Positions 11,508 to 61,856 are shown, numbered from the stretch's first letter. The stretch is DNA of 64,000 nucleotides from Escherichia coli (GCF_013315695.1 NZ_CP054353.1); one strand, 5' to 3'. A program made the numbers and translations. Notes: generated by a model from the sequence alone, not told the origin.

Positions 11508-11522
11508 GCGTTAAAAACAATG

Positions 11523-11550: not shown

Positions 11551-11557
11551 TGCGCCT

Positions 11558-43738: not shown

Positions 43739-46021
43739 ATGTCCGAGCTTAATGAAAAGTTAGCCACAGCCTGGGAAGGTTTTACCAAAGGTGACTGGCA
43801 GAATGAAGTAAACGTCCGTGACTTCATTCAGAAAAACTACACTCCGTACGAGGGTGACGAGTCCTTCCTGGCTGGCGCTACTGAAGCGACCACCACCCTG
43901 TGGGACAAAGTAATGGAAGGCGTTAAACTGGAAAACCGCACTCACGCGCCAGTTGACTTTGACACCGCTGTTGCTTCCACCATCACCTCTCACGACGCTG
44001 GTTACATCAACAAGCAGCTTGAGAAAATCGTTGGTCTGCAGACTGAAGCTCCGCTGAAACGTGCTCTTATCCCGTTCGGTGGTATCAAAATGATCGAAGG
44101 TTCCTGCAAAGCGTACAACCGCGAACTGGACCCGATGATCAAAAAAATCTTCACTGAATACCGTAAAACTCACAACCAGGGCGTGTTCGACGTTTACACT
44201 CCGGACATCCTGCGTTGCCGTAAATCCGGTGTTCTGACCGGTCTGCCAGATGCTTATGGCCGTGGTCGTATCATCGGTGACTACCGTCGCGTTGCGCTGT
44301 ACGGTATCGACTACCTGATGAAAGACAAACTTGCACAGTTCACCTCTCTGCAGGCTGATCTGGAAAACGGCGTAAACCTGGAACAGACTATCCGTCTGCG
44401 CGAAGAAATCGCTGAACAGCACCGCGCTCTGGGTCAGATGAAAGAAATGGCTGCGAAATACGGCTACGACATCTCTGGTCCGGCTACCAACGCTCAGGAA
44501 GCTATCCAGTGGACTTACTTCGGCTACCTGGCTGCTGTTAAGTCTCAGAACGGTGCTGCAATGTCCTTCGGTCGTACCTCCACCTTCCTGGATGTGTACA
44601 TCGAACGTGACCTGAAAGCTGGCAAGATCACCGAACAAGAAGCGCAGGAAATGGTTGACCACCTGGTCATGAAACTGCGTATGGTTCGCTTCCTGCGTAC
44701 TCCGGAATACGATGAACTGTTCTCTGGCGACCCGATCTGGGCAACCGAATCTATCGGTGGTATGGGCCTCGACGGTCGTACCCTGGTTACCAAAAACAGC
44801 TTCCGTTTCCTGAACACCCTGTACACCATGGGTCCGTCTCCGGAACCGAACATGACCATTCTGTGGTCTGAAAAACTGCCGCTGAACTTCAAGAAATTCG
44901 CCGCTAAAGTGTCCATCGACACCTCTTCTCTGCAGTATGAGAACGATGACCTGATGCGTCCGGACTTCAACAACGATGACTACGCTATCGCTTGCTGCGT
45001 AAGCCCGATGATCGTTGGTAAACAAATGCAGTTCTTCGGTGCGCGTGCAAACCTGGCGAAAACCATGCTGTACGCAATCAACGGCGGCGTTGACGAAAAA
45101 CTGAAAATGCAGGTTGGTCCGAAGTCTGAGCCGATCAAAGGCGATCTCCTGAACTACGATGAAGTGATGGAGCGCATGGATCACTTCATGGACTGGCTGG
45201 CTAAACAGTACATCACTGCACTGAACATCATCCACTACATGCACGACAAGTACAGCTACGAAGCCTCTCTGATGGCGCTGCACGACCGTGACGTTATCCG
45301 CACCATGGCGTGTGGTATCGCTGGTCTGTCCGTTGCTGCTGACTCCCTGTCTGCAATCAAATATGCGAAAGTTAAACCGATTCGTGACGAAGACGGTCTG
45401 GCTATCGACTTCGAAATCGAAGGCGAATACCCGCAGTTTGGTAACAACGATCCGCGTGTAGATGACCTGGCTGTTGACCTGGTAGAACGTTTCATGAAGA
45501 AAATTCAGAAACTGCACACCTACCGTGACGCTATCCCGACTCAGTCTGTTCTGACCATCACTTCTAACGTTGTGTATGGTAAGAAAACTGGTAACACCCC
45601 AGACGGTCGTCGTGCTGGCGCGCCGTTCGGACCAGGTGCTAACCCGATGCACGGTCGTGACCAGAAAGGTGCAGTAGCCTCTCTGACTTCCGTTGCTAAA
45701 CTGCCGTTTGCTTACGCTAAAGATGGTATCTCCTACACCTTCTCTATCGTTCCGAACGCACTGGGTAAAGACGACGAAGTTCGTAAGACCAACCTGGCTG
45801 GTCTGATGGATGGTTACTTCCACCACGAAGCATCCATCGAAGGTGGTCAGCACCTGAACGTTAACGTGATGAACCGTGAAATGCTGCTCGACGCGATGGA
45901 AAACCCGGAAAAATATCCGCAGCTGACCATCCGTGTATCTGGCTATGCAGTACGTTTCAACTCGCTGACTAAAGAACAGCAGCAGGACGTTATTACTCGT
46001 ACCTTCACTCAATCTATGTAA
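43739..46021 (+). CDS. pflB: pyruvate formate-lyase (formate C-acetyltransferase)
   Basis: 760-aa ORF with the C-terminal glycyl-radical motif RVSGYAV and active-site cysteines (IACCVSPM). Confidence 0.98.
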
Positions 46022-46063
46022 TTAGATTTGACTGAAATCGTACAGTAAAAAGCGTACAATAAA

Positions 46064-46089
46064 GGCTCCACGAAAGTGGGGCCTTTTTT
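46064..46089 (+). terminator. rho-independent terminator of pflB
   Basis: Imperfect hairpin GGCTCCAC-GAAA-GTGGGGCC followed by TTTTTT. Confidence 0.6.
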
Positions 46090-46212
46090 AGCACGAGAGC
46101 CTTTTTTGTCAGCTATCTATACTTTAAGGTGACTGCCAAAACAGACTCGACGTAGCCTTCGAGCTGCGCACCAACACGGCCTCAGATGGGCCACATCTGG
46201 AGAAACACCGCA

Positions 46213-46953
46213 ATGTCAGTTATTGGTCGCATTCACTCCTTTGAATCCTGTGGAACCGTAGACGGCCCGGGTATTCGCTTTATCACCTTTTTCCAGGGCT
46301 GCCTGATGCGCTGCCTGTATTGTCATAACCGCGACACCTGGGATACGCATGGCGGTAAAGAAGTTACCGTTGAAGATTTGATGAAGGAAGTGGTGACCTA
46401 TCGCCACTTTATGAACGCTTCCGGCGGCGGCGTTACCGCATCCGGCGGTGAGGCAATCCTACAAGCTGAGTTTGTTCGTGACTGGTTCCGCGCCTGCAAA
46501 AAAGAAGGCATTCATACCTGTCTGGACACCAACGGTTTTGTTCGTCGTTACGATCCGGTGATTGATGAACTGCTGGAAGTAACCGACCTGGTAATGCTCG
46601 ATCTCAAACAGATGAACGACGAGATCCACCAAAATCTGGTTGGAGTTTCAAACCACCGCACGCTGGAGTTCGCCAAATATCTGGCGAACAAAAATGTGAA
46701 GGTGTGGATCCGCTACGTTGTTGTGCCAGGCTGGTCTGACGATGACGATTCAGCGCATCGCCTCGGTGAATTTACCCGTGATATGGGCAACGTTGAGAAA
46801 ATCGAGCTTCTCCCCTACCACGAACTGGGCAAACACAAATGGGTGGCGATGGGCGAAGAGTACAAGCTCGACGGTGTAAAACCACCGAAAAAAGAGACGA
46901 TGGAGCGAGTAAAAGGCATTCTTGAACAATATGGTCATAAAGTGATGTTTTAG
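46213..46953 (+). CDS. pflA: pyruvate formate-lyase activating enzyme (radical SAM)
   Basis: 246-aa ORF from ATG 46213 ([23 protein letters not shown]...) with the radical-SAM cluster motif [10 protein letters not shown]. Confidence 0.96.
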
Positions 46954-47019
46954 AACATCATTGCAGGTTGAATGTCGACCTGTAATTTTGGCTCCTTCCC
47001 CCTTCTTTTAGTTAGAATA

Positions 47020-47059
47020 AATAAATCAGCGTTGAGTGTATGCTCGACGCTGATTTATT
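47020..47059. terminator. 13-bp-stem hairpin between convergent pflA and bcsC-like gene
   Basis: AATAAATCAGCGT...ACGCTGATTTATT perfect inverted repeat with a 14-nt loop; the only strong structure in the 146-bp convergent gap. Confidence 0.5.
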
Positions 47060-47099
47060 GAGCTTAATTTTCGTACTGTAACTTTCCGATGCTACGTTA

Positions 47100-50000
47100 C
47101 TACCCGTCGGCGTAAGGTATCAGCGGCTGTGGCGGTAAATCCATATCGCCCTGCCATCCGGCGGCGGAATACCGTACATAGAGCTGGAAGTGACTTGGCG
47201 CATAATCCTTCGCTTTCTGGATATCAATCGCCGTACCAACAAACCAGTTGGACGTGACGCGACGTTCAAGTAATGCCCGTGCCGTGTAACCAAAACCCTG
47301 ACTGCTGCTACCACTGTTGGATTGTTGTGCTGCTTCTTCCTGCCAGTCGCTCGGGATCAGGTTCATCAGCGGATAACGCGGCATGGTTTTGGTCCGTGAG
47401 TGCGACCATGAACCTGAAGCCCCCAGCTCCCACGACCAGTTTTCCGTCCGCTCGCGCCACATCACCGGCACCGCAAACGACAGGTATTCCTGCGGGCTGT
47501 AGTAACCGCCCTGACCCAGTGAGTACTCACTCAGGTCTTTGTCGTAATGCCAGATCATGTTGTTCAGGCCAATGGTAACGCGGCGGTTATTCTCGTTGAT
47601 AATTTTATAGTAATAGCCCGTCATCCAGCGCACGCGCCAGTTATCTTCGACATTTTTACCGGTTAACTGATCACCGCTAAGCGATGCCCAGACGCCGTTT
47701 GCTTCACCTTTATCGTAACTCAGACTTAGCCCCACGCCGTCGGCACGCACGCCGCCCCATTTTTTCCCGGTGTTGCCCGGAGAATCTTTCTGCCCGCCGA
47801 AGGCCAGCATTGAGCTGGAGACAGGCCGACGATGTGCGTCAACGGTATAGCCGAGTGGGCCGATACTGTCGCTGTAACTGACAGCGCCGACCACATCCAC
47901 CACGTTGAATCCCATCGGTGTGGTGCCAATATCCCAGCTCCAGGTGTCGTTGCGCCAGCCAACCGCCACGCTTGTGCCGGAGTCTGACTGACTGCGGTTG
48001 CCGCTACACTCCTGCAGCGTACAGGTTCCCCAGTTATCATCCCATTTGCCATCGGCATTAGTGGAGAAACTGCCGACGTTCATATTGACGAAATCACTGC
48101 GAAAGAACATCCGACCGTCAGAATACGGCGCATCCACCTGCAACATGGTGGTATGTGCTTTCAGGTCAGAATAGCCGCCAGTGCCGTTTGATCCCCAGTA
48201 GTCGTGCTCCAGGGTGACATTGAGATCCTGCTGACGATAAAGATCTGCCGCATCGCTGCGCACGCCACGTTTCAGCCAGTCATCCTGCTCATCATTACGG
48301 GTAAGGCGGGTAAAGGTGTCGTTATCCTGCGGACGTGTCGTCGTCACGCCGGAAGCGATCATCGCATCTTTGTAGGTTTCCAGCGCCTGTTGCGGTTCAC
48401 CCGCCTGCGCCTCAAATTTTGCGCCATCGCGCAGTACCATCGCGCTTTCCATCGACGGCGGCTGAGATTTTGCCTGCAGGATCAGCCTGTTAAATGTCTG
48501 CTGTGCCGCTGCGGTATCGCCAAGCTGTGCCTGCACCAACGCCACGCGCCGCTGAGTGTTCAGCGAGGCGTTATCGGTGGCGGGAAGTTTCGCCAGTTGA
48601 CTGCGCGCCGCGGCTTTGTCGCCTGCGGCAATATCCACTTCCGTCAGGCCAAGAATGGCATCGGCGTTATTCGACTCCCGCGCCAGCACATTCTGATACG
48701 CCGTGCGGGCGGCGGTGTAATCGCGTCGCTGTTGTGCCCAGTCAGCCAGCGTAAGATCAATGCGCGTGGAAGGCGGTTGCTGGCGTAGCATCGCCTCCGC
48801 ATCCTGTTCTTTGCCACTGTCACGCAGGCGATTAGCCGTTTCCAGAATCTGATCGCTTTGCAGGCGATTCACCAGTTCCTGAATGTTGCCGTTCCACCGG
48901 GCGCGCGGCAGATTGTTAATATGCGCCAGCGCCGCCCGCTCCTGATCGTGACCGGAGAGATACAGTCCGTAAGCGTAAACCTGGTCCGGGTCGTTCGGCT
49001 TCTGTTGCGCCAGGTTACGCATTAACGTATCAGCCTGGGTACGTTGTCCGGCCTGCCAGAGATCCTGCGAAAGCCGGTAAGTTACCCACACACTGCCGGG
49101 GTCCAGCGCCAGTCGTTGCCGCTGAAGTGCTGCCGCCTGCGCCCATTTACCCTGATTTTCCAGCGCCTCCGCCTGCTGCGATAAGCGATCGTTTTGCAGA
49201 CTGCGTTCGATATCATCAATACTGCGCCGCTGGCTGGCAGAAAGTGACGCAATAAACGCTTCAGCTTTTTCCGGCGATTGCTGCCGATAAATGTTCGCCA
49301 GTCCACGCACGGCGTTAGTGTTGCCGCTGTCCATACGCAGGGTCTGCTGATAATAACGTTCGGCGGCGGGGTAATCTTTTCGCGCCATTGCCACATCACC
49401 CAGCCCCAGCACCGCATAGCTGTCGGTGTTATCGACATTGCGTGCCTGCAGGAACAGGCGTTCCGCCTGATCAGGATTGTTCGCTTTCAGTGCGGCATCG
49501 CCCTGTTGGATCGCCAGCCAATAACGGTTCACTTTCAGCAAACTGTTCCATTTGTCGTTGTTGCTGCTGTGCGGGCCCAGCGCGAGGGCTTTTTCCAGAT
49601 TTGCCACCGCATTCGCGCGATCGCCTTTCTGTGAATAAGCCTGGCCCAGCGCCCCCAATATTGCACCAGAGTTTGGGTTATCAATATTAAGTTTTTTCAA
49701 CTGACTAATTGCCTCGTTGCGACGAGATGCAATTTGCGCCACTGCACTCCAGTATTCCAACGCCATGCCGACATCTGACGGTACTCCGTTAAATAGCTTG
49801 TCATAACTGACAATAGCCTCCTCGTATCGCCCGGAGATAGCTTGTAAACGCGCCATTTGCAATGCCTGGCGCCCCTCAAGCGAAGAAAGTCGCATGACCG
49901 TACGCGATGCTTTATATATTTTTGAATCTGGGGCGATCAGAGAAAGTCTGGCAAGTTGTTTGTGTGCTCCGTCAATATCCCCCTTGCGAAGCAGATAGCG

Positions 50001-50207
50001 AAACCGAGCCGCAACGACATCAGGATTATTGGGCTCCACCAATTCAAGGCGATAAAGCGACTGCTCCACCAGTTCTTCACGGTGAGAGTCTTCTCCCAAT
50101 CGAATCTGTGCCATCAGCAGTTGATAAGCAGTTGGCGTGGCTTTTGCCATCGACATTACCGCCAAACCAAGAGATATGGTGAGTAAATTTAGGGTGAATT
50201 TGTGCAT
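47100..50207 (-). CDS. BcsC-like outer-membrane exopolysaccharide export protein (N-terminal TPR region + C-terminal beta-barrel)
   Basis: About 1035-aa ORF (ATG at 50207; track start 50219 is TTG) with signal peptide MHKFTLNLLTISLGLAVMSMAKA, multiple TPR-like repeats, and a C-terminal region rich in alternating aromatic/Gly beta-strands typical of BcsC barrels. Last gene of the co-oriented cluster. Confidence 0.8.
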   Translation of the reverse strand: MHKFTLNLLTISLGLAVMSMAKATPTAYQLLMAQIRLGEDSHREELVEQSLYRLELVEPNNPDVVAARFRYLLRKGDIDGAHKQLARLSLIAPDSKIYKASRTVMRLSSLEGRQALQMARLQAISGRYEEAIVSYDKLFNGVPSDVGMALEYWSAVAQIASRRNEAISQLKKLNIDNPNSGAILGALGQAYSQKGDRANAVANLEKALALGPHSSNNDKWNSLLKVNRYWLAIQQGDAALKANNPDQAERLFLQARNVDNTDSYAVLGLGDVAMARKDYPAAERYYQQTLRMDSGNTNAVRGLANIYRQQSPEKAEAFIASLSASQRRSIDDIERSLQNDRLSQQAEALENQGKWAQAAALQRQRLALDPGSVWVTYRLSQDLWQAGQRTQADTLMRNLAQQKPNDPDQVYAYGLYLSGHDQERAALAHINNLPRARWNGNIQELVNRLQSDQILETANRLRDSGKEQDAEAMLRQQPPSTRIDLTLADWAQQRRDYTAARTAYQNVLARESNNADAILGLTEVDIAAGDKAAARSQLAKLPATDNASLNTQRRVALVQAQLGDTAAAQQTFNRLILQAKSQPPSMESAMVLRDGAKFEAQAGEPQQALETYKDAMIASGVTTTRPQDNDTFTRLTRNDEQDDWLKRGVRSDAADLYRQQDLNVTLEHDYWGSNGTGGYSDLKAHTTMLQVDAPYSDGRMFFRSDFVNMNVGSFSTNADGKWDDNWGTCTLQECSGNRSQSDSGTSVAVGWRNDTWSWDIGTTPMGFNVVDVVGAVSYSDSIGPLGYTVDAHRRPVSSSMLAFGGQKDSPGNTGKKWGGVRADGVGLSLSYDKGEANGVWASLSGDQLTGKNVEDNWRVRWMTGYYYKIINENNRRVTIGLNNMIWHYDKDLSEYSLGQGGYYSPQEYLSFAVPVMWRERTENWSWELGASGSWSHSRTKTMPRYPLMNLIPSDWQEEAAQQSNSGSSSQGFGYTARALLERRVTSNWFVGTAIDIQKAKDYAPSHFQLYVRYSAAGWQGDMDLPPQPLIPYADG

Positions 50208-51968
50208 ACCTGGACTCAATCAGGTGTTAACTCACTTTTTATTAAAAAATGAATAAGCGCAGTTCCCTGCCCTGCCTGTTTAAGGCCAGAGCAGAGAGCT
50301 ACAAAGATGAATTACTGTTGATGAGGATTCAGACGACGATGGCTAATGATGCGTAGCAGACGCCAGACGACCCACGCCAGAAGCACCACACTCAGCATTG
50401 CCATTCCTGCCAGCAAAACAGGATGTTTCGCTAACATATATTGCGCGCGCTCAATCCAGGGAAGATGCCCCACATAATAGGTATCTCCAACCCGTAAACT
50501 ATCGACACCTGATTCACGAATAACCGCAACTGAGCCAAATATATTGCCACGTTTTGCACTATTAATTAGCGCATTATTAAGTAACTCGTCACCACGTGCC
50601 CCCTCGGTCATTAATGCAATTACGCTACGTTGGGGATGATATGGAGACTGGAAACCAACCACCGCGGCCATTGGCGATGGAGAGATCATGCTTGTTTGTG
50701 TTTCAGTTTTTTGGTTGTTTTCATCTGTCATAATTTGTGCGTTATCAGAGTGCCGCATTGGCGTTTTTACCCAACTAGCGGTTGCATCAATGAGCAGATT
50801 AATTTGCTGCTGACCTGCAAATTCTTGCGGAATTGCCCCTATCAGCAGGATGTCTGCATCCTTATTCTGGATGGAGCTTATATCATCAGTAACTGTCAGA
50901 TTAATTGCCGGAAATCCGGTTTGAGCACCAATCAATCCAAGGGTATTTAGCAATATTTCAACCTGCGTTGTACCAGGATGTTCAGGCATAACGATGACTG
51001 TTTCAGATAAATCGGCCATACGGCTAAAAGGAAAGCCTGAACTAGCAAAGGCGCGTAAATCTGGCATGGCGATAAAGTGATGATACTTTGAAAAATCGAT
51101 AGTAGAATCATCAGCAATAACTGCATGGTTATTCAGAGGCCGGGAAATAATACAACTCCCGTCATCAGTACTCGGTATCGTATTAACGTACTCAAAATTG
51201 AATCGTAATTGATTAAGTGCCCCCAATGTCAGCGCCGGAATGGTAATTTTATTATTGCTATCTGACAATTCTTGCAATAACGGTAAATGTAATAGCAGTC
51301 GATCAGTAGTCGAGCGCGGGCTTGGGCGAAAAGATTCAATGTACTGATTATTAAGATTAACATCAATACGAGAACCGCCTACCATTGGCGTGGTATAGCG
51401 ATAGTTAATCTTCATATCAACCCCACTATTACGTAACAGAAAGAGATCAGGCGGCAAATTGAATGAAACATTAATTGCTGCGATCTGCAGGGCACTTGCC
51501 TGTAACTGTCCTTCATAGTTTTTAAGCTCTGCGAAAGTTACAGGACGATCAGTGCGAACCCAGTTTGGCGCATCATAAGGTTTGCGTGGCAGCAGTGGTT
51601 TCACGTCATTTACAACCACACTATCGCCGCGAAACAGTATATTTCCCTGAGCGAGACCTTTTGCTGCCTGTAATAAATCTTTGTCATCGCGGCCCCAAAT
51701 TACCAACAATTTGACGAAAGGATTTTGTGGATGGTTAATCATCTTAATAACAGGTGCATTCACCAACGGATGATCACGCAAAAAGTCTGGCCGTCTATTG
51801 TTAGTGGCAAAGACTATAGCATTGCTTTCCGGTAACTGATTATAAAAAACTGGAAATTGATGACCACGCCACCCCGATTGCGAACCAAACCACGAAGCGA
51901 CAATTGCAGATGCTTGCTGCAAACCAGCCTCCGGTGGGCCAGCAAAAACCATCGGCAATGTATTAGTA

Positions 51969-51977
51969 CGGTTATCT
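51969..51977. repeat. 9-bp IS1 target-site duplication, left copy (CGGTTATCT)
   Basis: Identical 9-mer at 52746-52754 flanks the other end of IS1. Confidence 0.9.
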
Positions 51978-52032
51978 GGTGATGCTGCCAACTTACTGAT
52001 TTAGTGTATGATGGTGTTTTTGAGGTGCTCCA

Positions 52033-52308
52033 GTGGCTTCTGTTTCTATCAGCTGTCCCTCCTGTTCAGCTACTGACGGGGTGGTGCGTAACGGCAAAAG
52101 CACCGCCGGACATCAGCGCTATCTCTGCTCTCACTGCCGTAAAACATGGCAACTGCAGTTCACTTACACCGCTTCTCAACCCGGTACGCACCAGAAAATC
52201 ATTGATATGGCCATGAATGGCGTTGGATGCCGGGCAACAGCCCGCATTATGGGCGTTGGCCTCAACACGATTTTACGTCACTTAAAAAACTCAGGCCGCA
52301 GTCGGTAA
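52033..52308 (+). CDS. insA: IS1 InsA (transposition inhibitor / N-terminal part of InsAB' transposase)
   Basis: 91-aa [45 protein letters not shown]... matching IS1 InsA. Confidence 0.95.
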
Positions 52309-52730
52309 CCTCGCGCATACAGCCGGGCAGTGACGTCATCGTCTGCGCGGAAATGGACGAACAGTGGGGCTATGTCGGGGCTAAATCGCGCCAGCGCTGG
52401 CTGTTTTACGCGTATGACAGGCTCCGGAAGACGGTTGTTGCGCACGTATTCGGTGAACGCACTATGGCGACGCTGGGGCGTCTTATGAGCCTGCTGTCAC
52501 CCTTTGACGTGGTGATATGGATGACGGATGGCTGGCCGCTGTATGAATCCCGCCTGAAGGGAAAGCTGCACGTAATCAGCAAGCGATATACGCAGCGAAT
52601 TGAGCGGCATAACCTGAATCTGAGGCAGCACCTGGCACGGCTGGGACGGAAGTCGCTGTCGTTCTCAAAATCGGTGGAGCTGCATGACAAAGTCATCGGG
52701 CATTATCTGAACATAAAACACTATCAATAA
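52227..52730 (+). CDS. insB: IS1 InsB frame (expressed as InsAB' via -1 frameshift)
   Basis: 167-aa ORF in the -1 frame relative to insA, matching IS1 InsB. Confidence 0.9.
52282..52290 (+). promoter_or_regulatory. IS1 programmed -1 ribosomal frameshift site (TTAAAAAAC)
   Basis: The A6C slippery motif lies in the insA/insB overlap, where the IS1 frameshift site is known to be. Confidence 0.7.
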
Positions 52731-52745
52731 GTTGGAGTCATTACC

Positions 52746-52754
52746 CGGTTATCT
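52746..52754. repeat. 9-bp IS1 target-site duplication, right copy (CGGTTATCT)
   Basis: Exact repeat of 51969-51977. Confidence 0.9.
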
Positions 52755-53455
52755 CGCGGATCAAAGAATGGCACAGGAAAATATGAAAGATCATTTTGCA
52801 GATTGAGTTTCTGGACGACCAGACCAAGTTCACTGTTACGTCCAATATCAAGCCACAAGTTATTGCTGGTTGAGATTTCACAGCTATTCTGATAATGGCC
52901 AATTAATTCAAAACGCAAACGATTAAAATCCGAGAAATACAATGGGTTAAGCGTTATTTCCGCCAACGTTTTTTTTCCCAGTTGTTCTTTGGTAATCGGT
53001 AATACTCCCATCAACTCATCATTAAGATAAACTTTAAGCTGCGACTGAACGGGGATCAATGACGGTGACGGAGTATATTCAAGCTTTAGTTTTGCATCTG
53101 AAACTATCTCATCACTGCGCATACCAAATTCAATATACCCCAGTGGGTTGACACCATTCAAAACGATGTTACCAGGCGCTGGTGATATTTGTGTAAATGG
53201 AAGTTTAAAATGATAAGAGGAATCTTTCGCATAAACAGAGACGTTAGACTTCTCTATAGCGGGTAATACTATCCCGGAGGGAGACTTATGGATTATGGTA
53301 TCTAAAGCTGATGCAGCATTTGCCTGGTATAACCATAAAAACCCTAAGCAAATTATTGCAGTAATAAATTTTAAATATTTTCTTTCCATTTTAAAAATTT
53401 CAAGAGACATAATCAACACAAATAATATATTTAGTTGGTTAAATATAATCTAAAA

Positions 53456-55570
53456 CTAATTCTCACGACTATTTTTTAGTGTCCGCAGAATATAAAAAAT
53501 CATATTGTAATACCCTTTAAGAGAGATGATACATACGTCAAAAAAGCTCTTTAGTATATTATCTTGCTTAATTTTATCATTCCACTCTTGCCATAATGAA
53601 TCACGTGAAAATGTTACTCTGACATAATTAATATTCTGTTCATAAGTCATTGGCAAAATCTTCAGACCAATTTTATTTTTGTAAGCATGAACAACTTTTA
53701 CAGGAATATCACATTCCCCTTTATTATCACTCAGATAAAGAGACAAATGCTGAGTTTTTTCGATTTCTTTTACATCGGAGATGTGATCAACAATAACCCC
53801 CAGGCCACCTTCGGAGAAATCAATAACAGAACAGGGATAGCACCGTCCATCTGCTAGTTTTATCACACCTTTAAAAGAAACATCTATCCGAGGAGAAAAG
53901 CGGACCTGCTTTTGTTCAATAGAGACTGCCAGGGTTGCGCCAATAATAATTGTATTATAAATCAACCAAATCAAACAAAATAAATTTAATATAACAAGAT
54001 GACCTTGCAATCTATAAATATTAATAACACCTATTATTAGTCCAATTAAATTTAAAATAGCAAAAATAAGATAAGGATATGAGATTCGCCAGTCAACAAA
54101 TTTATTTTTTATTAACCCGCCCTTGGCAGTAACGTTAAATCGCCCTTTAGCTGGCGCAAGTAAGGCAACAAGCGTTGGTAGTGTAATATACCAGGCCAGA
54201 ACCATTTCATAAATTTCATTCCAAAATGAATGTCTGTATTCACCCTGAACTCTTGAGTTAGTAAAAATAATCACAAATAGATAAGGTAGAACATAAGACA
54301 TAATATCTGCAACCGACGCATCTATCAAATTAACTGAAAAGAAAATAGGACATAGTGGCGCGAATAAAAAAATCAGCCGTGGAACCCCTGATAAAAAATG
54401 CATCATGCTACTGAGATAGCAAAGACGCTGTGATAACGTCAGCCCTTTGCCCAATAATGGATTATCAATACGTAAGATTTGGATCATGCCCCTGGCCCAC
54501 CGTATTCGTTGTCCGATATGAGCAGACAATGTTTCGGTAGCAAGTCCAGCGGCCAGAGGATAGCGAAGATATGCGGAGCTGTACCCTGCACGATGCAAGC
54601 GTAGCGATGTATGCGCATCTTCCGTTACCGTTTCAACTGCAATGCCTCCAACCTCATCTAATGCAGACCTACGGATAACCGCGCATGAACCACAAAAAAA
54701 TGAAGCATTCCATGTATCGGTGCCATTCTGGATTAAACCATAAAAAAGATGTCCTTCATTTGGTTTCTGCCGAAATTGCCCCAAGTTTCGCTCAAAAGGA
54801 TCGGGAGAGAAAAAATGATGTGGTGTTTGCAGCATCGATAGTTTTTTATCGGCAATAAACCAGCCCATCGTTTTTTTTAAAAAAGAAACGGAAGGAATAT
54901 GATCACAATCGAAAATAGCAACAAATTCGCCGTTAGCTATTTTAAGCGCATTGTTTATATTTCCAGCTTTCGCATGTTCATGCGTTTCTCTTGCAACATA
55001 GCAAATACCTGACTCATCAGCAAATTTCCTGAATTCGTCTCTGGCACCATCATCAAGAAGCCAGACATGTAATTTATCTTTTGGCCAGTCTAAAGCCAGC
55101 GCTCCATAAACTGTATTCTTCACGACAGTAAAGGGTTCATTATATGTAGGTATGAATATATCGACATCAGGCCATTCTTCTTTATTATCTGGTAAAGGTA
55201 TGCTTTCCCTGTTCAATGGGAAACAGACCTGAAAATAACCAAGTAATAAAACAAACCATGCATACGTTTCAGCAGCTAACAGCGTCAATGAAAAGAAGCT
55301 GTCAGGAAACTCATCAAGAATAACTGAAGAAGAGTAACGCCACCATAGATACCTTGTGGATATAAGTATACCAATACCCATTAAGATCAGGGTAATCATC
55401 CTTCCCCTGAGCAAATTGAGGAGAAAAACAGAGATACAAATGATAATCGAGAATAGTGTTTGTTGATAAAAACCGAGCGGCTGTTCAACAATTGACAAAA
55501 AAACAAAACATAGCAATATAGCAACAAAAAGAAAAATTTTGTTGTATATTTCTTTATTTTTTAAATTCAT
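53456..55570 (-). CDS. BcsA-like processive family-2 glycosyltransferase with C-terminal PilZ (c-di-GMP-binding) domain
   Basis: 704-aa ORF with eight or more predicted TM helices, GT2 motifs (LLDDGARDEF, FDCDH, TVTEDAHT, QRIRWARG, FFCGSCAV) and PilZ motifs (RFSPR = RxxxR; DFSEGG = DxSxxG). About 35% GC. Confidence 0.88.
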   Translation of the reverse strand: MNLKNKEIYNKIFLFVAILLCFVFLSIVEQPLGFYQQTLFSIIICISVFLLNLLRGRMITLILMGIGILISTRYLWWRYSSSVILDEFPDSFFSLTLLAAETYAWFVLLLGYFQVCFPLNRESIPLPDNKEEWPDVDIFIPTYNEPFTVVKNTVYGALALDWPKDKLHVWLLDDGARDEFRKFADESGICYVARETHEHAKAGNINNALKIANGEFVAIFDCDHIPSVSFLKKTMGWFIADKKLSMLQTPHHFFSPDPFERNLGQFRQKPNEGHLFYGLIQNGTDTWNASFFCGSCAVIRRSALDEVGGIAVETVTEDAHTSLRLHRAGYSSAYLRYPLAAGLATETLSAHIGQRIRWARGMIQILRIDNPLLGKGLTLSQRLCYLSSMMHFLSGVPRLIFLFAPLCPIFFSVNLIDASVADIMSYVLPYLFVIIFTNSRVQGEYRHSFWNEIYEMVLAWYITLPTLVALLAPAKGRFNVTAKGGLIKNKFVDWRISYPYLIFAILNLIGLIIGVINIYRLQGHLVILNLFCLIWLIYNTIIIGATLAVSIEQKQVRFSPRIDVSFKGVIKLADGRCYPCSVIDFSEGGLGVIVDHISDVKEIEKTQHLSLYLSDNKGECDIPVKVVHAYKNKIGLKILPMTYEQNINYVRVTFSRDSLWQEWNDKIKQDNILKSFFDVCIISLKGYYNMIFYILRTLKNSREN

Positions 55571-55643
55571 GGTACGTAACTATTCATTAATACTATGATT
55601 TGACTTTAAAAAAACGAATGAATGATGTCATAAAAATAAAATT

Positions 55644-56984
55644 TTAACACCAGGTTACCTGTGCTCTTCCATTTTGCTTACTTTTGTATAATCGTTCATC
55701 TGCCAGTAATTTCAACCGTTCAATGTTATTCATGCACTCGTCAGTATTGGCAACACCAATACTGCAACTACAATTCAATCCACCTATTGAGAAATGGACT
55801 ATTCTGTGCAAAATTCTTGATAATTGATTTATATCTTTATCATGATAAATAATAGCGAACTCATCGCCACCAAATCGATAAACTTCACCTTTGCTGAGGG
55901 GTAATTCATCCTTAATAAGATTAACAAGTCTTATTAGTACTTCATCACCAAATAAATGACCAAACTTGTCATTAATGGTTTTAAACTTATCTACATCAAA
56001 CAGGCATAAATATCCAAAATCCTTACTCAGCATCCTGATATTTTTATCAAAAACACGACACCCAGAAGCTCGCGTCAATGCATCGTAAGTCCCGGAATCA
56101 TATATTTCTCTAATTGCATCAATCTCTTCAACGTTAAAGAATAGATTTTTTCCATGCAAATTATAATGATTATTCGATAATATAGATTCTTTTTCTGACT
56201 TACCCTTATTTATGATTTTTTGCATTAATTTAATGTAATGAAAATATATTAACCCCGCAGAAATCGCCGATGTGAAAACAAAAAACAAGCACATATAAAT
56301 ATACTTATCTTTTTTATAGGCAACAATAAACATTACTTCCGGGATATAAGAATAAGCAAGAGTGATCGCTGATTTCTCAAATACAGCATCATTAATCAAA
56401 AAATCATCACCCGCGATTTTCTTTTCATTATCATTGATATCATAAAATGAGACATATATATTTTCCCGTTCACCTGACTGATTTCTTATCAAAGCCAAAT
56501 AACGTTCAGGATCTACCACTGATATCAAACTTGTTCGTTTCGAAATAGGATGAGCATAATAAATATAATATTTATTATTTAAACTAATAATCCCTCTTTC
56601 AAAGATGTTACTTATACGGATAGAAGAAACTATGCCGTCACAAAAGTTATCCCCTTCCGTTGTAACTTTGGCGCATTTACCATCGCTAATGATATAGGGA
56701 CCTAGATCATAAATATATTCTGGTTTTTGAAAGTCAGCAAAACTATTGCGTATCCTTTTTAACAACTCTTCCGGAGAAATATCTAACCCATAAAATACAT
56801 TATTAAATACTAAGCGCCGATACTCAGACACATTAGCTATAGCAAGCCCACTATCTATGATCGATACCTTTACCGAATTGACTCGATCTTTAACGTAAAT
56901 AGTATACAGATAACATGTCATTACAGAGACACATAAAAAATACAAAAAACAGATCCCTGCTGCCTTTTTTTTATACTTAAACAT
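55644..56984 (-). CDS. membrane-anchored diguanylate cyclase (two TM helices flanking a periplasmic domain + GGDEF domain); DgcI/YliF-like by architecture
   Basis: 446-aa ORF with GGDEF-domain motifs DALT, FDVDKFKTINDKFGH, RFGGDEFAII and ADERLYKSKQNGR; no RxxD I-site five residues upstream of GGDEF. About 30% GC. Confidence 0.85.
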   Translation of the reverse strand: MFKYKKKAAGICFLYFLCVSVMTCYLYTIYVKDRVNSVKVSIIDSGLAIANVSEYRRLVFNNVFYGLDISPEELLKRIRNSFADFQKPEYIYDLGPYIISDGKCAKVTTEGDNFCDGIVSSIRISNIFERGIISLNNKYYIYYAHPISKRTSLISVVDPERYLALIRNQSGERENIYVSFYDINDNEKKIAGDDFLINDAVFEKSAITLAYSYIPEVMFIVAYKKDKYIYMCLFFVFTSAISAGLIYFHYIKLMQKIINKGKSEKESILSNNHYNLHGKNLFFNVEEIDAIREIYDSGTYDALTRASGCRVFDKNIRMLSKDFGYLCLFDVDKFKTINDKFGHLFGDEVLIRLVNLIKDELPLSKGEVYRFGGDEFAIIYHDKDINQLSRILHRIVHFSIGGLNCSCSIGVANTDECMNNIERLKLLADERLYKSKQNGRAQVTWC

Positions 56985-56988
56985 TGTG

Positions 56989-59337
56989 TTATTTTCTTTT
57001 TTTCGGTTTACTGTCTATATGCCACTCTGAAAACGGTAATGGTTTCTGGTATAAATATCCCTGAACATGGGAGAAGCCTAATTTTTGTAATTCTCTGGCC
57101 TGTCTTTCTGTTTCAACACCTTCAGCGATCACTGGCATATTTTCTTCTCGTGCAAGACTAGATATAAAACACACAACCCTGTTAGTTTCATCGAAAATAC
57201 CAGAAGTAAATTCTGAATCAATTTTGATGCTATCAGGTCTAACTTTGTATAATTTTTTCAAGTCAGCTAACCCACTGCCAAAATCATCAAGGGAAATTTT
57301 AATGCCATTTCTTCTTAAAAATTTTATATTATTATAAAAACTATCATTTATATCTTTCATTGCTGACTCGGTGATCTCCAGACAGATTTGTTCCGTATTT
57401 ACGCCAAATTTATTAATTAAATTCAAAACGCGGGTATGGAAATCAAATTCATTTAACTGCCAAGGTGAAACATTGATATGCAGAAGAAATTCTTTCGTAA
57501 TTTCATACTCACGACTAAATGAACCAAATTCACCAATAGCCGTTTCAAGAACAAAATCACCCAGTTCTTTAATTAAGCCAATTTCTTCAGCAACAGGCAC
57601 GAAAACTGATGGTGGTATTGCACCATTTTCAACGGACAACCAGCGGCATAACGCTTCGGCGCCAACAACATTATTACTATCCATATCAACAATCGGTTGA
57701 TATACTAAATAAAACTCACTACTCACAATTGCTTTTTTTATATTTCCAGCAACCCAAACCTTTTGATCAAGTTCATGAGCCTTAATATCATCATAAAATA
57801 TAAATTCAGATTCTTTATTTTCTCGCATAGCTGTTAATGCCAGTTTCAGTTTACCTTCATAAATCGACAAACTTTCCCCTGAAAAAGTTTCACAAATAGC
57901 AACCTTATGAACATAAATATTTCTTATGCAAAAAATATGCTCAGGAAAGTTTAAAACAGATAATCGTTCTATGAACTCTTCACAATGAGTGTGACACAGC
58001 AACAAATATGTTTCAGTAGAAATTTTTATAATATCACAATATTTAGAATACTTTGCTGATATCTTTGATTTTATATCATTAATGATCTCATAAAATTTCT
58101 GACTGCCATGTATAGCCTCTACAAACTCTAATCCATAGATACAAAGCATACCAACTGCTGAATAGGTTTTATTATTAGTTTCAATGACAGATTTGTTGAT
58201 ATAGAAACAACTTCCTTGTTCATAGGAAACAAGATTAAGTAACCGTTCCATCCGCTCTTTGTATTTGTCACTAATGTTATTAATGATTTTTTTGAGCTCA
58301 ATAATCTCACTACTGTCATTTTGCACGATTTCGATTTTATCATTTCGGTATACTGAGCTCGCTAATTTTTTCAGATGCTCAATTAGTTTACCAGAGTCGT
58401 TTCTAACCTTTTTTGTTATCTTTTCAAAAAGGTACCATAATAAACAGAAACAAACCAAACCACATACAAACATCAGTGTAAAATATTTATTTATGTTTGT
58501 GTCTTCTGCTTTTTGATAATGAAAATAATGAAATTTGACATCAGGAAGCCTGGGGAGTGAAATAATATCGTCCGTATAATTACCGTTATTATTACTTATG
58601 TTATAACGTCCAGATGCATCTCTAACAATAAGATGTAACATTGATTGTTCATTACCTACCATAATCCTTTTATTCTGTTCCATAAATAAAATATCTGCAT
58701 TTCCTCCTAATTTGTCCAGGAAATTGCTAAAATATCTTTCATCAAGATCTAAATGAATTAACTTCAGAGCAAATGAATCTTTTTCTGCTTCGGCTGGTCG
58801 TAATGAAAACGAAAAACATTTTTTCCCGGCAATGCCATAGCAGTTATACCATGGTGACCATTTTGAATAAGTCCCTGTTGGTAATTTATTCCAGGGACGG
58901 GATTCAGGATCAAAGTAGTTATCGTTAATTTCACCATCAGGGCTAGTAAAAGCATGACCTGGCTCTGATTGCCCCAAAAATTTAACATCACCATTATCAG
59001 TTCGAATAAAGCTAAGATACTTTCCATTATTTAGCATTATTCCGACTAAATTAACAGAATCTATCTTTTTCATCCGATGAAGAACTGCGCGTTTTATTTC
59101 ATTTTCATCGTGTAACAGATAAATGGCATCTTTTAAAGCATCCGCCTCTTTTTCAACTTTAGAAAAAAAGTTATTCAAATTATTATTGATAAGTATAAGA
59201 TTAATGCGTGAAGAGTTTTCTGCTATTTTTTTATAAAAATCAATGGCTGTAATAAATGATAAAATAATATAGACAGTGACAGCGAATATAAGCGCAGTGT
59301 TAAATCTTGAGTTTAATTTTTCTGTGATGCTATACAT
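56989..59337 (-). CDS. membrane-anchored c-di-GMP phosphodiesterase (periplasmic sensor domain + cytoplasmic linker + EAL domain); PdeI/YliE-like by architecture
   Basis: 782-aa ORF; EAL-domain catalytic motifs are intact (EALCRW, NVSPWQ, EITES, DDFGSGL, KIDSEF, EGVETE, GYLYQKP). Its stop is 4 bp from the dgc start. Confidence 0.85.
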   Translation of the reverse strand: MYSITEKLNSRFNTALIFAVTVYIILSFITAIDFYKKIAENSSRINLILINNNLNNFFSKVEKEADALKDAIYLLHDENEIKRAVLHRMKKIDSVNLVGIMLNNGKYLSFIRTDNGDVKFLGQSEPGHAFTSPDGEINDNYFDPESRPWNKLPTGTYSKWSPWYNCYGIAGKKCFSFSLRPAEAEKDSFALKLIHLDLDERYFSNFLDKLGGNADILFMEQNKRIMVGNEQSMLHLIVRDASGRYNISNNNGNYTDDIISLPRLPDVKFHYFHYQKAEDTNINKYFTLMFVCGLVCFCLLWYLFEKITKKVRNDSGKLIEHLKKLASSVYRNDKIEIVQNDSSEIIELKKIINNISDKYKERMERLLNLVSYEQGSCFYINKSVIETNNKTYSAVGMLCIYGLEFVEAIHGSQKFYEIINDIKSKISAKYSKYCDIIKISTETYLLLCHTHCEEFIERLSVLNFPEHIFCIRNIYVHKVAICETFSGESLSIYEGKLKLALTAMRENKESEFIFYDDIKAHELDQKVWVAGNIKKAIVSSEFYLVYQPIVDMDSNNVVGAEALCRWLSVENGAIPPSVFVPVAEEIGLIKELGDFVLETAIGEFGSFSREYEITKEFLLHINVSPWQLNEFDFHTRVLNLINKFGVNTEQICLEITESAMKDINDSFYNNIKFLRRNGIKISLDDFGSGLADLKKLYKVRPDSIKIDSEFTSGIFDETNRVVCFISSLAREENMPVIAEGVETERQARELQKLGFSHVQGYLYQKPLPFSEWHIDSKPKKRK

Positions 59338-60436
59338 ACTGGTGTTCTGACTAAAATGTTATCAATAATTTCGATATTACATTATATAAAGTTCGGTATA
59401 TGAAATGGTATTAATACTCCTCTTTATGATTTTCTGAATTAAATGATCTCCATTCTGTAAATATATCATAATGAGAAGATTGATTTTCTCTTAATTTACC
59501 AAAGTTATTATCATGCTTATTACTTTAACCAGAATGACATTATCATATATAGCGTTTATACTTTTGCATCTTCCACCCACGCTACCGCCTTTCGTTAATT
59601 TATCAACGAAATAATTTAGATATGAAAAAATCAATATATGACGCCTAAGCTATCACATTATGCATAGTTGCGACATTCACCTCTTTAATTATCCCAAAGA
59701 GGTATTAATGTGAATTCTCTATCATCCATTTTGCTGATTTATCTTTTTTCAGTCATGAGCAATCCGACTCTCTTAGCCAAAATAAATTAATAACCTTAAA
59801 ATGAGGTTTAATCAGAAAGTAGTAGCCACAGCTTGACTATTAAGACTATAAATTAGCCATAACGATGGACAGATAAATATGTTAATGAATACATGTTCAA
59901 TAAAACAATAAGGCACAACGCCAGGCCACCATTTTATTTTAAAAATAAAAGGCTGTGAACTATGCCAGGTATAATCTGATTCTATCGAGAGAGAATTTTT
60001 GTAAGTTACAAATACTGCAAAAGACACATTACACAAAATTTTTAACCACACAAACACCTTGTGTTCTGTATAACAGAACAATAGCTGTGGTCATTTTCAG
60101 CAAGTTTAACTAAAATTATCAAGAATTTTTTTTGATGTATATCAAAAACAATAGTCTTCGCGCATCCGTTACTGCTTAACATTTACCCACAAAGTTCATA
60201 TTTTCACCACACATAATCGTTCACTTCAGAACTTAAAATAATAACTTGCAAAATAACCAATAATTAAAACTATCACTGCATCTAAAAATAAAGATTAAGA
60301 TAACTAAAATTCGTATTATCACGGCATCGTTTATCGCCACCCGTCTCTTAAGAAAAATTTAACTTTGCTATTATCAGTCCTCTCCGAATTTCTCTTCTAT
60401 TTACTGCGATAACCCCGGCGAACCGGGGCATGATGA

Positions 60437-61856
60437 CTATTTCTTATTCGCTTTACGCGCAAGTAACGGGAATATCAGCCCCAGTCCAACCAGGACAAAT
60501 GGCGTCGCAATATTCAGCGCCAACTGAAAAGTCCACTCTGCGGTGAAGGCTTCCATTTTCGGGAAAATCCCTGTCAGGCAGGCAAAAGCGGTAAAGGTAA
60601 AACACCAGATCCCGACAGTCATCGCCAGCGGCCTGTTACGAATAAAGACATACTCTGGTTTATATTTCTGCGCCAGGCGAACGACTGCAATAAATGCAAC
60701 AAATACCCATAAATAACGCAGCGGCATCACTACCGAATTAAGGTTCAACAGCCATTTATAGAGATTGTTCATATCACCAATGCCGAGAGTCGGCAGCATA
60801 ATCAGAATCGCCACCAGTACCAGGGTCAGAAAATAGCCATTAACGGGCGTACCAGAAGCGTTGGTACGACATAAACTGGCTGGAATATATTTGCTATCAG
60901 CATCGCCTAATAGTACTTTAAGCGGCGCATCAATCGAGAATACCAGCGCAGCTACTTGTCCCAGGGTATTCGCAATGGCGTAAATCACCATTAAAGTATT
61001 ACCCATGTTGTAATACTCGCCCAGCTTCTGAAAGGCGTAATACTGACCGTTGGTCATTAAGTCATCCGGGATATTACGCGAATCAAACATCATCCCCATC
61101 GCCAGCGAGCCCAGAATGGCACAAACCGCAACCATCACCGCCAGGCATAACATCCCTTTTGGAAATTCTTTTCCTGGGTTGCGCGTTTGATTAACGTAAG
61201 GAGAAATCTTCTCTGCTCCGCCAACCGCGAAAACCAGCATTGAAATAGTGGTAATGTAGGTAAAGTCGATATGAGGAATGAACGTTTCCCAGGTAATGTT
61301 TGTGGTCGCAATATGCACTTCAGTAATTGCAGGCGCGGTTACCGCCATCGCCACATACAGGAGCGACATAACAAACATCGCAATCCCTGCCACAGAACCG
61401 ACGATTTTCAGCGATTTCATACCGCGTGAAGCAACCCACATAAAGAAGATAAACAGCACCAGCGTTAACCCCTGTAACGCTACGACTGAATATTCTTTGA
61501 TTAACGAACCGTCGCCTTTCATCGCCCAACCGAGCGCAATCAGTATTGCCTGGGGTTTTTGTGCCAGATAGGGAATATGCACTACCCAGTAGGTCCACGC
61601 GGCGAGGTAAGCCAGTCCGGGTCCCATCGTGTGTTTAATCCAGGTACTGACCCCGCCCTTCCCATCTTTGAAGGTCGAGCCTAACTGACCAACAATTAGC
61701 GCATAAGGTGTGAAATAGAGCGCAAAGATAAACACCCATGAAAAACCCCTGGTTGGCGTAGTTATTAACAACGTTGCCAAAACCCCAGACAGTGATAAAA
61801 GACATCAGCGCAATGTTGTACCATCGCAGCTGTTTTTCCTGAACATTCCCAGCCAT
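60437..61856 (-). pseudogene. ycaM: APC-family amino acid/polyamine transporter gene with a frameshift near the 5' end
   Basis: The N-terminal 37 codons (MAGNVQEKQLRWYNIALMSFITVWGFGNVVNNYANQG, from ATG 61856) are in one frame and the remaining 447-codon ORF (from 61780) in another; the frames switch at an A5/T5 homopolymer at 61741-61745. Confidence 0.7.

Follow-up and report, generated by a model that had tools for sequence, protein, structure and literature searches.

The 64,000-nucleotide stretch of DNA analysed here (the window) comes from the genome of Escherichia coli MSB1_4I and carries two signalling genes at the head of an accessory cellulose synthase cluster (Table 1). The first encodes a PdeI-like c-di-GMP phosphodiesterase (PDE) and the second a DgcI-like diguanylate cyclase (DGC), and both open reading frames lie exactly where the preliminary description of this DNA had placed them. 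The two genes share a common strand direction with the synthase genes, and they form one low-GC island together with these genes, an inserted IS1A element and a long leader upstream of pde.

Table 1. Features of the accessory island; positions are counted from the first letter of the window.
Feature	Position	Strand	Basis or remark
Whole accessory island (pde-dgc-bcsA-bcsB-bcsC), 13,485 bp including IS1	46953..60437	-	
AT-rich non-coding leader upstream of pde, 1.1 kb; presumed promoter/regulatory region	59338..60436	-	
PdeI-like c-di-GMP phosphodiesterase gene (pde), 782 aa	56989..59337	-	ORF, Pfam, K-12 homology
DgcI-like diguanylate cyclase gene (dgc), 446 aa	55644..56984	-	ORF, Pfam, K-12 homology
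Accessory bcsA, cellulose synthase catalytic subunit, 704 aa, BcsA3-like, C-terminal PilZ	53456..55570	-	
Accessory bcsB, 5′ fragment (pseudogene piece)	52746..53419	-	"missing C-terminus" in the source record; within ORF 52724-53419
IS1A, 768 bp, splitting bcsB; 9-bp target duplication CGGTTATCT	51978..52745	+	IS1 terminal repeats, annotation
Accessory bcsB, 3′ fragment	50312..51977	-	
Accessory bcsC, 1035 aa, mosaic gene	47100..50207	-	

The island stands in for the ycaN-ycaK segment of K-12, from the pflA stop to the ycaM stop. Homology to K-12 ends at window position 46952 (K-12 950,341) and restarts at 60438 (K-12 948,658). The GC content climbs from 32% to 55% along the operon, with flanks of about 51%, and the 13.5-kb low-GC island is horizontally acquired. 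Among 5,426 complete E. coli genomes, nine carry the island, and the occurrence of the same structure in these independent genomes rules out an assembly chimera as the source of the GC jump at bcsC.

The genes are tightly spaced, with 4 nt between pde and dgc, 73 nt between dgc and bcsA and 36 nt in the third gap of the operon. The scan of positions 55400-60500 for promoters and terminators found no terminator-like site in any gap of the pde-dgc-bcsA operon, and a weak promoter-like site in the dgc-bcsA gap. The same scan returned 32 sites, compared with 27±5 in shuffled controls, and no promoter is claimed from this number. Both the chance level of the scan and the weak promoter-like site ahead of bcsA weigh against the presumed co-transcription of the pair with the bcs genes. 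The leader contains a single open reading frame of at least 80 aa (89 aa), and is the most diverged stretch between the island alleles (73-75% identity). The search of the whole island against Rfam gave zero matches at E <= 1, and thus no known type of riboswitch or sRNA is recognised within the leader.

The PDE is composed of a first transmembrane segment, a CHASE9-containing periplasmic region, a second transmembrane segment, a helical linker, a predicted degenerate GGDEF-like domain and an EAL domain. Pfam places CHASE9 at residues 36-150 (E 8e-38) and EAL at 533-766 (E 2e-64), and hydrophobic segments at 11-35 and 282-308 bracket the sensor domain. The DGC consists of a first transmembrane segment, a GAPES2 periplasmic domain (residues 26-232, E 1e-39), a second transmembrane segment and a GGDEF domain (300-441, E 2e-21), with hydrophobic segments at 7-31 and 228-251 on both sides of the sensor. 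The layout proposed earlier, with a periplasmic domain between two transmembrane segments ahead of the catalytic part, is therefore true of both proteins.

About 220 aa lie between the second transmembrane segment and the EAL domain of the PDE, a detail overlooked in the preliminary description. In the AlphaFold2 model of the protein (mean pLDDT 77.7), this region and the EAL domain superpose in Foldseek on tandem GGDEF-EAL structures over 413-472 columns, the structural matches being PA0575, MorA and DosP with E values down to 3e-30. The NCBIfam GepA model aligns over residues 286-773. No GG[DE]EF motif occurs in the PDE region between the second transmembrane segment and the EAL domain, and the alignment of the PDE family with the DGC family by hhalign left a degenerate GGDEF undetected (probability 1.9%), the profiles being very shallow (Neff 1.7). 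According to the model, the region is a degenerate GGDEF-like domain.

The catalytic residues of both enzymes are preserved. In the EAL domain, E561 (of the EAL motif), R565, N622, E654, E657, D684, D685, K705, E739, E742 and Q759 are present and invariant across six family members, which bears out the claim of a complete catalytic motif set. The DGC carries its GGDEF motif at residues 372-376, and D330, N338, D347, R370, K436 and R440 agree with those of the solved cyclase 3IGN and do not vary within the family; we take them to be equivalent to PleD D327, N335, D344, R366, K442 and R446. The active site of the cyclase is intact as had been described, with the A-site and the GTP- and Mg-binding residues all present, and the RxxD product-inhibition site is indeed missing, as the positions -9 to -6 before GGDEF read LSKG. 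The same positions read RREG in strain N3, CDKG in E. fergusonii, VDKG in K-12, IIGG in the L014 lineage and SDYG in the L015 lineage, and an RxxD site is absent from K-12 DgcI and every family member examined. The lack of the I-site is therefore a trait of the whole DgcI family and does not distinguish the DGC of the window.

It is very improbable that one or both proteins are non-enzymatic, with the EAL protein serving as a trigger or receptor, or the GGDEF protein as a scaffold, which signal by protein contact. Loop 6 of the EAL domain reads DFGSGLAD and departs from the usual DFG(T/A)GYSS, the N-terminal helix of the GGDEF domain is atypical (LTRASGCRVF in place of LTxLxNRR) and, to our knowledge, no enzymology of DgcI has been published. 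However, the residues checked for metal binding, substrate binding and catalysis in the DGC and the PDE are all invariant across lineages which are 32-43% identical. The overexpression of K-12 pdeI leads to phage N4 resistance in the same way as that of other active PDEs (PMC7553319), which suggests, as indirect support, that the PdeI family is active.

The similarity to the K-12 pair pdeI(yliE)-dgcI(yliF), which had been noted in the preliminary description, is confirmed by pairwise alignment over the full length of both proteins. The PDE is 39% identical to K-12 PdeI in BLASTP over 775 aa (E = 0; 782 and 782 aa, end to end; 38.6% global identity), and the DGC is 41% (41.0%) identical to K-12 DgcI end to end (E = 4e-129; 446 and 442 aa). 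The order of the genes is the same, their lengths are nearly identical and pde precedes dgc in every lineage seen, with a gap of 4 nt in the window and 7 nt in K-12. The two pairs also share the CHASE9…EAL and GAPES2-GGDEF architectures, the near-abutting arrangement of the genes, intact GGDEF and EAL motifs and the absence of RxxD. They differ in sequence, with saturated synonymous sites, in GC content (32% in the window pair and 42-44% in the native pair), in genomic site and in the linkage of the window pair to a synthase. The native pair is nearly universal, being carried by 5,425 of the 5,426 complete E. coli genomes, whereas the window pair is as rare as its island.

The preliminary description had asked whether the window holds the ancestral context of the K-12 pair or a paralogous copy. 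In K-12, the native pair lies away from the ycaM-pflA site (about 72-77 kb) and is linked to no synthase, as had been stated there. Inspection of the gsi-rimO locus in MSB1_4I revealed an intact native pdeI-dgcI between gsiD and rimO, with a PdeI that is 98.8% identical to that of K-12. The distance of about 77 kb does not apply to this genome: an IS110-bounded inversion between aqpZ and dusC, found in MSB1_4I and AF3, places the native locus at 3.449-3.453 Mb. The pde of the window has no orthologous position, as it lies between ycaM and pflA and the gsiD-rimO site is taken by the native pdeI. Because an intact native pair is present in the same genome, the window pair is an ancient paralogous addition and does not represent the ancestral context of the native one; it is a paralog or xenolog of the native pair and not its ortholog. 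The identity of 39-41% and the saturation of synonymous sites rule out that the native pair was recently duplicated.

In the accessory BcsA encoded downstream of the pair, the N-terminal extension of the core BcsA, about 150 aa long, is missing; the accessory protein has 363 residues (41.6%) in common with the 872-aa K-12 BcsA. With the plasmid-borne BcsA2 of strain S56 (BcsA2 reference WP_074014783.1), it shares 72% identity. Its score against the NCBIfam BcsA equivalog is 1012.8 bits, above the cut-off of 992, and both the glycosyltransferase motifs of the GT2 domain (DDG, DCD, TED and QRIRW) and the PilZ motifs RFSPR and DFSEGG (RxxxR and DxSxxG) are intact; the accessory synthase is therefore predicted to be able to read c-di-GMP. 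The accessory BcsC is short of about 118 aa of the TPR region relative to the core BcsC. Its gene is a mosaic, with a diverged stretch of ~560 nt at the start and, over its last 2,557 nt, 88% identity to the core bcsC of K-12.

The IS1A insertion breaks bcsB, which means that the pair of MSB1_4I cannot at present work through the accessory synthase. The insertion is missing from seven of the nine island carriers, and the in silico removal of IS1 together with one copy of the duplication restores a bcsB open reading frame of 766 aa, of which 764 residues are as in BcsB of strain MS 21-1. The perfect 9-bp target duplication and this clean repair indicate that the insertion is recent. Such a history leaves room for the reading that the island is decaying and that the pair in MSB1_4I is a relic without function, its intact appearance being due solely to the young age of the operon's lesion. 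The MSB1_4I genome is rich in IS1 and contains many pseudogenes, its core bcs locus has also been hit by IS1A, and decay is found in related carriers, with a frameshift of the PDE gene in AF14 and an internal stop in bcsA of AF3. This reading is nevertheless judged quite unlikely, as both frames are full length, every tested catalytic residue is intact and nothing bars the expression of the pair and a resulting change in c-di-GMP.

The arrangement found in the window recurs in other genomes. The order pde-dgc-bcsA-bcsB is kept in E. coli N3, MS 21-1 and E7-1N7, which carry intact modules, and it is found at the same locus in non-coli Escherichia (E69/L021 and L011), in E. fergusonii at another chromosomal site, where bcsC is missing, and on the plasmid S56 pA. 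A separate deep lineage of the pair (38-40% identity) adjoins BcsA2 on plasmid-type contigs. Between the window and E. fergusonii, the PDE, the DGC and BcsA have diverged in parallel, with identities of 68%, 57% and 73%, respectively. With respect to the N3 allele, dN/dS is 0.09 for pde, 0.13 for dgc (0.06 for the GGDEF domain alone) and 0.07 for bcsA at a dS of about 0.7, values which describe long-term constraint and not the present state in MSB1_4I; pde, dgc and bcsA are under purifying selection. The family of the pair contains at least four deep lineages, and the searches suggest that it may be essentially confined to Escherichia, although very distant relatives may escape the three approaches used: a word-indexed protein search (four true members), an exhaustive search of representatives (mostly fragments) and a scan of species genomes with two peptide patterns.

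Not every pair of the family is linked to a synthase: the native pair is unlinked, and the pair of the L014 lineage has integrase and TraI-like genes as neighbours, the 10 kb seen being free of bcs genes. The pair of the L015 lineage is set apart from bcsA by IS elements. The unlinked native and L014 pairs speak for the alternative that the pair is a general c-di-GMP input module of mobile DNA, which stands beside bcsAB by hitch-hiking only; its targets would then be the global pool or effectors other than the accessory synthase, for instance curli/CsgD, motility or the core Bcs complex. The two frames have stayed intact in MSB1_4I despite the broken bcsB, as a general module would allow, and bcs-bearing plasmids carry GGDEF and EAL genes of several kinds (10.1101/2025.05.09.653004). 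Hitch-hiking appears unlikely when set against the tight operon-like spacing, the joint divergence of PDE, DGC and BcsA, and the fact that two deep lineages adjoin BcsA2/3-type synthases at no fewer than two chromosomal loci and on plasmids.

The linkage of the pair to a synthase is real but already known, because homologs of YliE and YliF adjoining accessory bcs2 and bcs3 clusters have been reported by Hosseinpourlamardi et al. (bioRxiv 10.1101/2025.05.09.653004), and a connected function of these neighbours was proposed independently in the same work. In the chromosomal bcsABC of the preprint, BcsA has no N-terminal extension and shares about 41% identity with BcsA1; the adjacent YliE- and YliF-like genes encode proteins about 35-41% identical to those of MG1655. 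The window cluster is alike in being a chromosomal bcsABC with adjacent YliE/YliF-like genes, in its identities (BcsA 41.6%, DGC 41%, PDE 39%) and in its intact PilZ domain; it differs in the disruption of bcsB by IS1. The text of the preprint makes no mention of the ycaM-pflA site, MSB1_4I, GC content or recombination. It is by these identities and its place on the chromosome that the cluster is provisionally assigned to bcs3, the type for which the preprint gives HDP8224287.1 as BcsA3 reference, and that its synthase is called "BcsA3-like".

In K-12, pdeK directly adjoins bcsC, and thus a signalling gene beside its synthase has a precedent. In local c-di-GMP modules, one membrane DGC, with or without a PDE, feeds c-di-GMP to one glycosyltransferase that bears a PilZ or MshEN domain. 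According to the Hengge laboratory, DgcC/PdeK at the core Bcs complex and DgcJ at NfrB are reportedly such modules in E. coli. The enzymes of these modules have sensors of other families, and dgcC lies away from the bcs genes, whereas in the window both enzymes are encoded ahead of the synthase, apparently in one operon.

The preferred reading, to which we assign a probability of about 0.6, is that a co-inherited, antagonistic PDE/DGC pair of the inner membrane heads the acquired pde-dgc-bcsA-bcsB-bcsC operon and would control the accessory synthase. In carriers with an intact module, the periplasmic domain of each enzyme would sense an envelope or extracellular cue, and the balance between synthesis by the DGC and hydrolysis by the PDE would set the local supply of c-di-GMP. 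The PilZ domain of the co-encoded BcsA3-like synthase would read this supply and switch glucan synthesis on or off. As the DGC lacks an RxxD site, its output would be uncapped by product inhibition, leaving the partner PDE and the sensor input as the only brakes. In MSB1_4I, where bcsB is split, the pair would at most feed the general c-di-GMP pool. We infer that the two proteins are enzymatically active, are transcribed together with the bcs genes and act locally or directly on the synthase, and the conserved gene linkage suggests that they may be dedicated to it. Such dedicated control of a PilZ-bearing synthase gains support from purifying selection and from the recurrence of the module elsewhere, at further loci, on plasmids and in Escherichia species besides E. 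coli. It is weakened by the interruption of bcsB, the decay in AF14 and AF3, the unlinked native and L014 pairs, the IS elements of the L015 lineage and the promoter scan at the level of chance.

The practical value of the observation is limited, as the linkage was already reported and the synthase operon is disrupted in MSB1_4I. Its biological interest lies in the native pair: few GGDEF/EAL proteins of E. coli are as conserved as PdeI and DgcI, and we know of no output assigned to these two. It is conceivable, though doubtful, that the CHASE9-EAL/GAPES2-GGDEF family arose as an integral regulator of a minimal bcsAB module that circulates in Escherichia, of which the core PdeI-DgcI would be an orphaned descendant. 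If so, K-12 PdeI and DgcI would be predicted still to act on, or dock to, a BcsA-type synthase. The repeated hard-wiring of their diverged relatives to a PilZ-bearing cellulose synthase on mobile DNA makes exopolysaccharide synthesis a concrete and testable target, and a family apparently almost confined to Escherichia, with its several deep lineages, is suited to the study of the co-evolution of sensor/enzyme pairs.

The two signaling proteins of the window are relatives of the PdeI (YliE) and DgcI (YliF) pair of K-12. The EAL protein (PDE) shares 39% identity with K-12 PdeI over 775 aa (E = 0) and the GGDEF protein (DGC) shares 41% with DgcI over 445 aa (E = 4e-129). The pairs also agree in lengths, sensor domains, gene order, and spacing; the likeness noted in the preliminary description is real. 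Its statement that the K-12 pair lies about 77 kb away without a linked synthase also holds, as the island site and the native pair are separated by ~72–77 kb in K-12 coordinates and no synthase adjoins the latter. Window positions 46000–61000 are 100% identical to the chromosome NZ_LR898874.1 of E. coli MSB1_4I, a human rectal-swab isolate. To the question of whether this source genome also carries yliE-yliF at the gsi-rimO locus, the answer is yes: an intact pair (pdeI, 782 aa; dgcI, 442 aa) lies between gsiD and rimO, with proteins 98.8% and 98.6% identical to those of K-12. Among complete E. coli genomes, 5,425 of 5,426 have the native pair and 9 have the window pair; synonymous sites are saturated between the two. 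Since the native pair is near-universal and coexists in MSB1_4I with the rare window pair, the latter is, judged by its sequence, an extra copy, a paralog or xenolog that has diverged deeply from the former. The native locus lies ~1.5 Mb from the island in MSB1_4I, owing to an inversion bounded by IS110-family elements. This inversion spans ~1.55 Mb from aqpZ to dusC, has one of two IS110-family copies at each end, and is common to MSB1_4I and isolate AF3.

The pair stands at the head of an island that encodes an accessory cellulose synthase and is bounded exactly by the pflA and ycaM stop codons. The leader is followed by pde, dgc, bcsA (704 aa), bcsB, and bcsC, with gaps of 4, 73, and 36 nt along pde-dgc-bcsA-bcsB. 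The GC content rises in the same direction, from 32% in pde and dgc through 37% in bcsA and 38–44% in bcsB to 55% in bcsC. The leader is the most diverged island part between alleles (73–75%); it contains no Rfam match and no ORF of at least 80 aa except one of 89 aa (59812–60081). Directly upstream of the island, ycaM (60437–61856) has an annotated frameshift in MSB1_4I, AF3, and AF14, its longest ORF being 447 aa vs. 476 aa in K-12, and is intact in MS 21-1, E7-1N7, and N3. In AF3 (L001 1–4481), a P2-like prophage with integrase, Cox, and replication genes takes the place immediately upstream of pflA that pflB has in the window, and the annotated N-terminus of pflA differs.

Coordinates of the island, its features, and the elements bounding the inversion (window positions unless a segment is named)
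Feature	Position	Strand	Size	Remark
Island	46953-60437		13,485 bp	replaces K-12 ycaN-ycaK
Leader upstream of pde	59338-60436		1.1 kb	AT-rich
pde	56989-59337	-	782 aa	
dgc	55644-56984	-	446 aa	
IS1A	51978-52745		768 bp	splits bcsB; 9-bp target duplication
Accessory bcsC'	47100-50207			mosaic gene
IS110-family copies	L003 21478-22503; L005 45937-46962			MSB1_4I chromosome segments (NZ_LR898874.1); bound the inversion

Both open reading frames lie exactly where the preliminary description placed them. In the PDE, hydrophobic segments 11–35 and 282–308 flank a periplasmic region of ~245 aa containing a CHASE9 domain (residues 36–150, E 8e-38), and an EAL domain occupies residues 533–766 (E 2e-64), both by Pfam. 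The ~220 residues between TM2 and the EAL domain are absent from the earlier account. An AlphaFold2 model of residues 300–782 (mean pLDDT 77.7) matches crystal and cryo-EM structures of tandem GGDEF-EAL proteins, namely DosP, PA0575, MorA, PA0861, and LapD, over 413–472 aligned columns, at E-values as low as 3e-30, and the NCBIfam GepA model aligns without a break over residues 286–773. As no GG[DE]EF motif was found in the region between TM2 and EAL, this middle domain is, in the modeled fold, a degenerate GGDEF-like domain, in agreement with the YliE architecture given in bioRxiv 10.1101/2025.05.09.653004. The EAL domain can be aligned to the active enzyme DosP and has residues E561, R565, N622, E654/E657, D684/D685, K705, E739/E742, and Q759, invariant in six of six family members; the catalytic motif set is complete, as had been claimed.

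The DGC combines a Pfam GAPES2 domain (residues 26–232, E 1e-39) between transmembrane segments 7–31 and 228–251 with a Pfam GGDEF domain (300–441, E 2e-21) carrying its GGDEF motif at 372–376. Both proteins therefore show the two bracketing hydrophobic segments ahead of their catalytic domains that had been described. Metal-, guanine-, and phosphate-binding residues are kept relative to the solved cyclase 3IGN and are invariant in the family; we take them to correspond to D327, N335, D344, R366, K442, and R446 in PleD numbering. No RxxD I-site was found in the DGC, the four residues at the expected place being LSKG. The earlier observation on the two proteins, including an intact cyclase active site without this motif, is thereby borne out in full. 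Because K-12 DgcI (VDKG there) and all other members examined also lack RxxD, the missing I-site is, at the motif level, common to the family and does not set the window copy apart.

The accessory BcsA scores above the NCBI equivalog cut-off for cellulose synthase and retains the DDG, DCD, TED, and QRIRW motifs as well as the PilZ motifs RFSPR and DFSEGG. In silico removal of IS1A restores a 766-aa bcsB ORF, 764 of the 766 residues of which match BcsB of MS 21-1. All five island genes are intact in N3, MS 21-1, and E7-1N7; AF14 has a frameshifted pde, and AF3 has the IS1 insertion together with a bcsA gene broken by an internal stop. In MSB1_4I, the core bcs locus likewise contains an IS1A (L013 24547–25244; NZ_LR898874.1 219546–220243) between bcsE and bcsR, both N-terminally truncated pseudogenes, so both cellulose systems of this strain have been struck by IS1A. 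Over its last 2,557 nt, the accessory bcsC shares 88% identity with K-12 core bcsC, its first ~560 nt have diverged too far to be picked up by blastn, and the TPR region is short of about 118 aa; bcsA and bcsB share only about 69–71% with the K-12 core genes. Plasmid S56 pA encodes a BcsC with 99% identity to the core protein; bcsC is entirely absent from the E. fergusonii module. The core-like 3′ part, the S56 pA protein, and the absence in E. fergusonii suggest that core Escherichia bcs operons have donated bcsC on more than one occasion. This also fits poorly with the claim that BcsC clusters concordantly with BcsA (bioRxiv 10.1101/2025.05.09.653004).

Comparison of window 46500–60500 with N3 (L007) and with E69 (L021) and L011 from non-coli Escherichia separates two island alleles, ~85% identical, at one ycaM-pflA site in E. 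coli with flanking genes ~99% identical. The N3-type allele is far closer to that of a non-coli Escherichia (dS about 0.2 vs. 0.7), the flanks of which are 89–90% identical to the window. This closeness suggests that the allele was imported through recombination in its flanks or that the polymorphism is old.

Searched against 1.84 billion representative clusters, a profile of the N-terminal 520 residues of the PDE recovered only 50, mostly fragments. One genome from each of 100,044 species yielded four loci, all from Escherichia. Two come from records under the name E. coli, one is from E. whittamii, and one is from E. albertii, where the pair has the native gsi-rimO context. At least four pair lineages exist, with mutual identities of 32–43%. 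The survey shows a family apparently confined to Escherichia, the searches being of limited sensitivity for very remote relatives.

Hosseinpourlamardi et al. (2025; bioRxiv 10.1101/2025.05.09.653004) described accessory BcsA2-4 clusters in E. coli, with GGDEF/EAL genes encoding full-length YliF/YliE homologs directly beside the chromosomal bcs2 and bcs3 clusters (39/32/41% and 35/37/28% identity to the MG1655 proteins), and hypothesized a connected function. The location of a pair beside an accessory bcs cluster is therefore real but already known. The window cluster fits their chromosomal 'bcs3', its BcsA sharing 363/872 residues (41.6%) with BcsA1 and 72% identity with the BcsA2 reference. 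Added here are the exact insertion site, the proven coexistence of the native pair in one genome, the family-wide I-site absence, selection estimates, the survey confining the family to Escherichia, and the state of island decay in the MSB1_4I lineage.

A strict tie between pair and synthase is countered by the native pair, which has no synthase neighbor, and by the L014 lineage, which adjoins integrase and TraI-like genes instead. The PDE of the L014 lineage (674 aa, no CHASE9 match) appears 5′-truncated by an IS256/IS1414-like end (L014 1–110), its first ~100 nt matching the ends of IS elements across hundreds of E. coli records, and this pair was found in no complete E. coli genome. On plasmid-type contigs L015/L016, bcsB is followed at 11491–11979 by a second EAL protein, of 777 aa and cut off at the contig end, so the cluster of this fourth lineage holds two EAL genes. 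The order pde-dgc-bcsA-bcsB recurs at the ycaM site of non-coli Escherichia, at an unrelated site of the E. fergusonii chromosome, there without bcsC, and on plasmid S56 pA, the bearer of the BcsA2 reference. Window and E. fergusonii proteins have diverged together (PDE 68%, DGC 57%, BcsA 73% identity), and a deep pair lineage other than that of the window (38–40% identical) neighbors BcsA2, both on plasmid-type contigs and in the plasmids of eight complete genomes. Between the window and N3 alleles, dN/dS is 0.09 for pde, 0.13 for dgc, and 0.07 for bcsA, at a dS of about 0.7. On this purely comparative evidence, and with a probability of roughly 60%, the window pair would be a dedicated regulator of the accessory synthase, probably acting locally.
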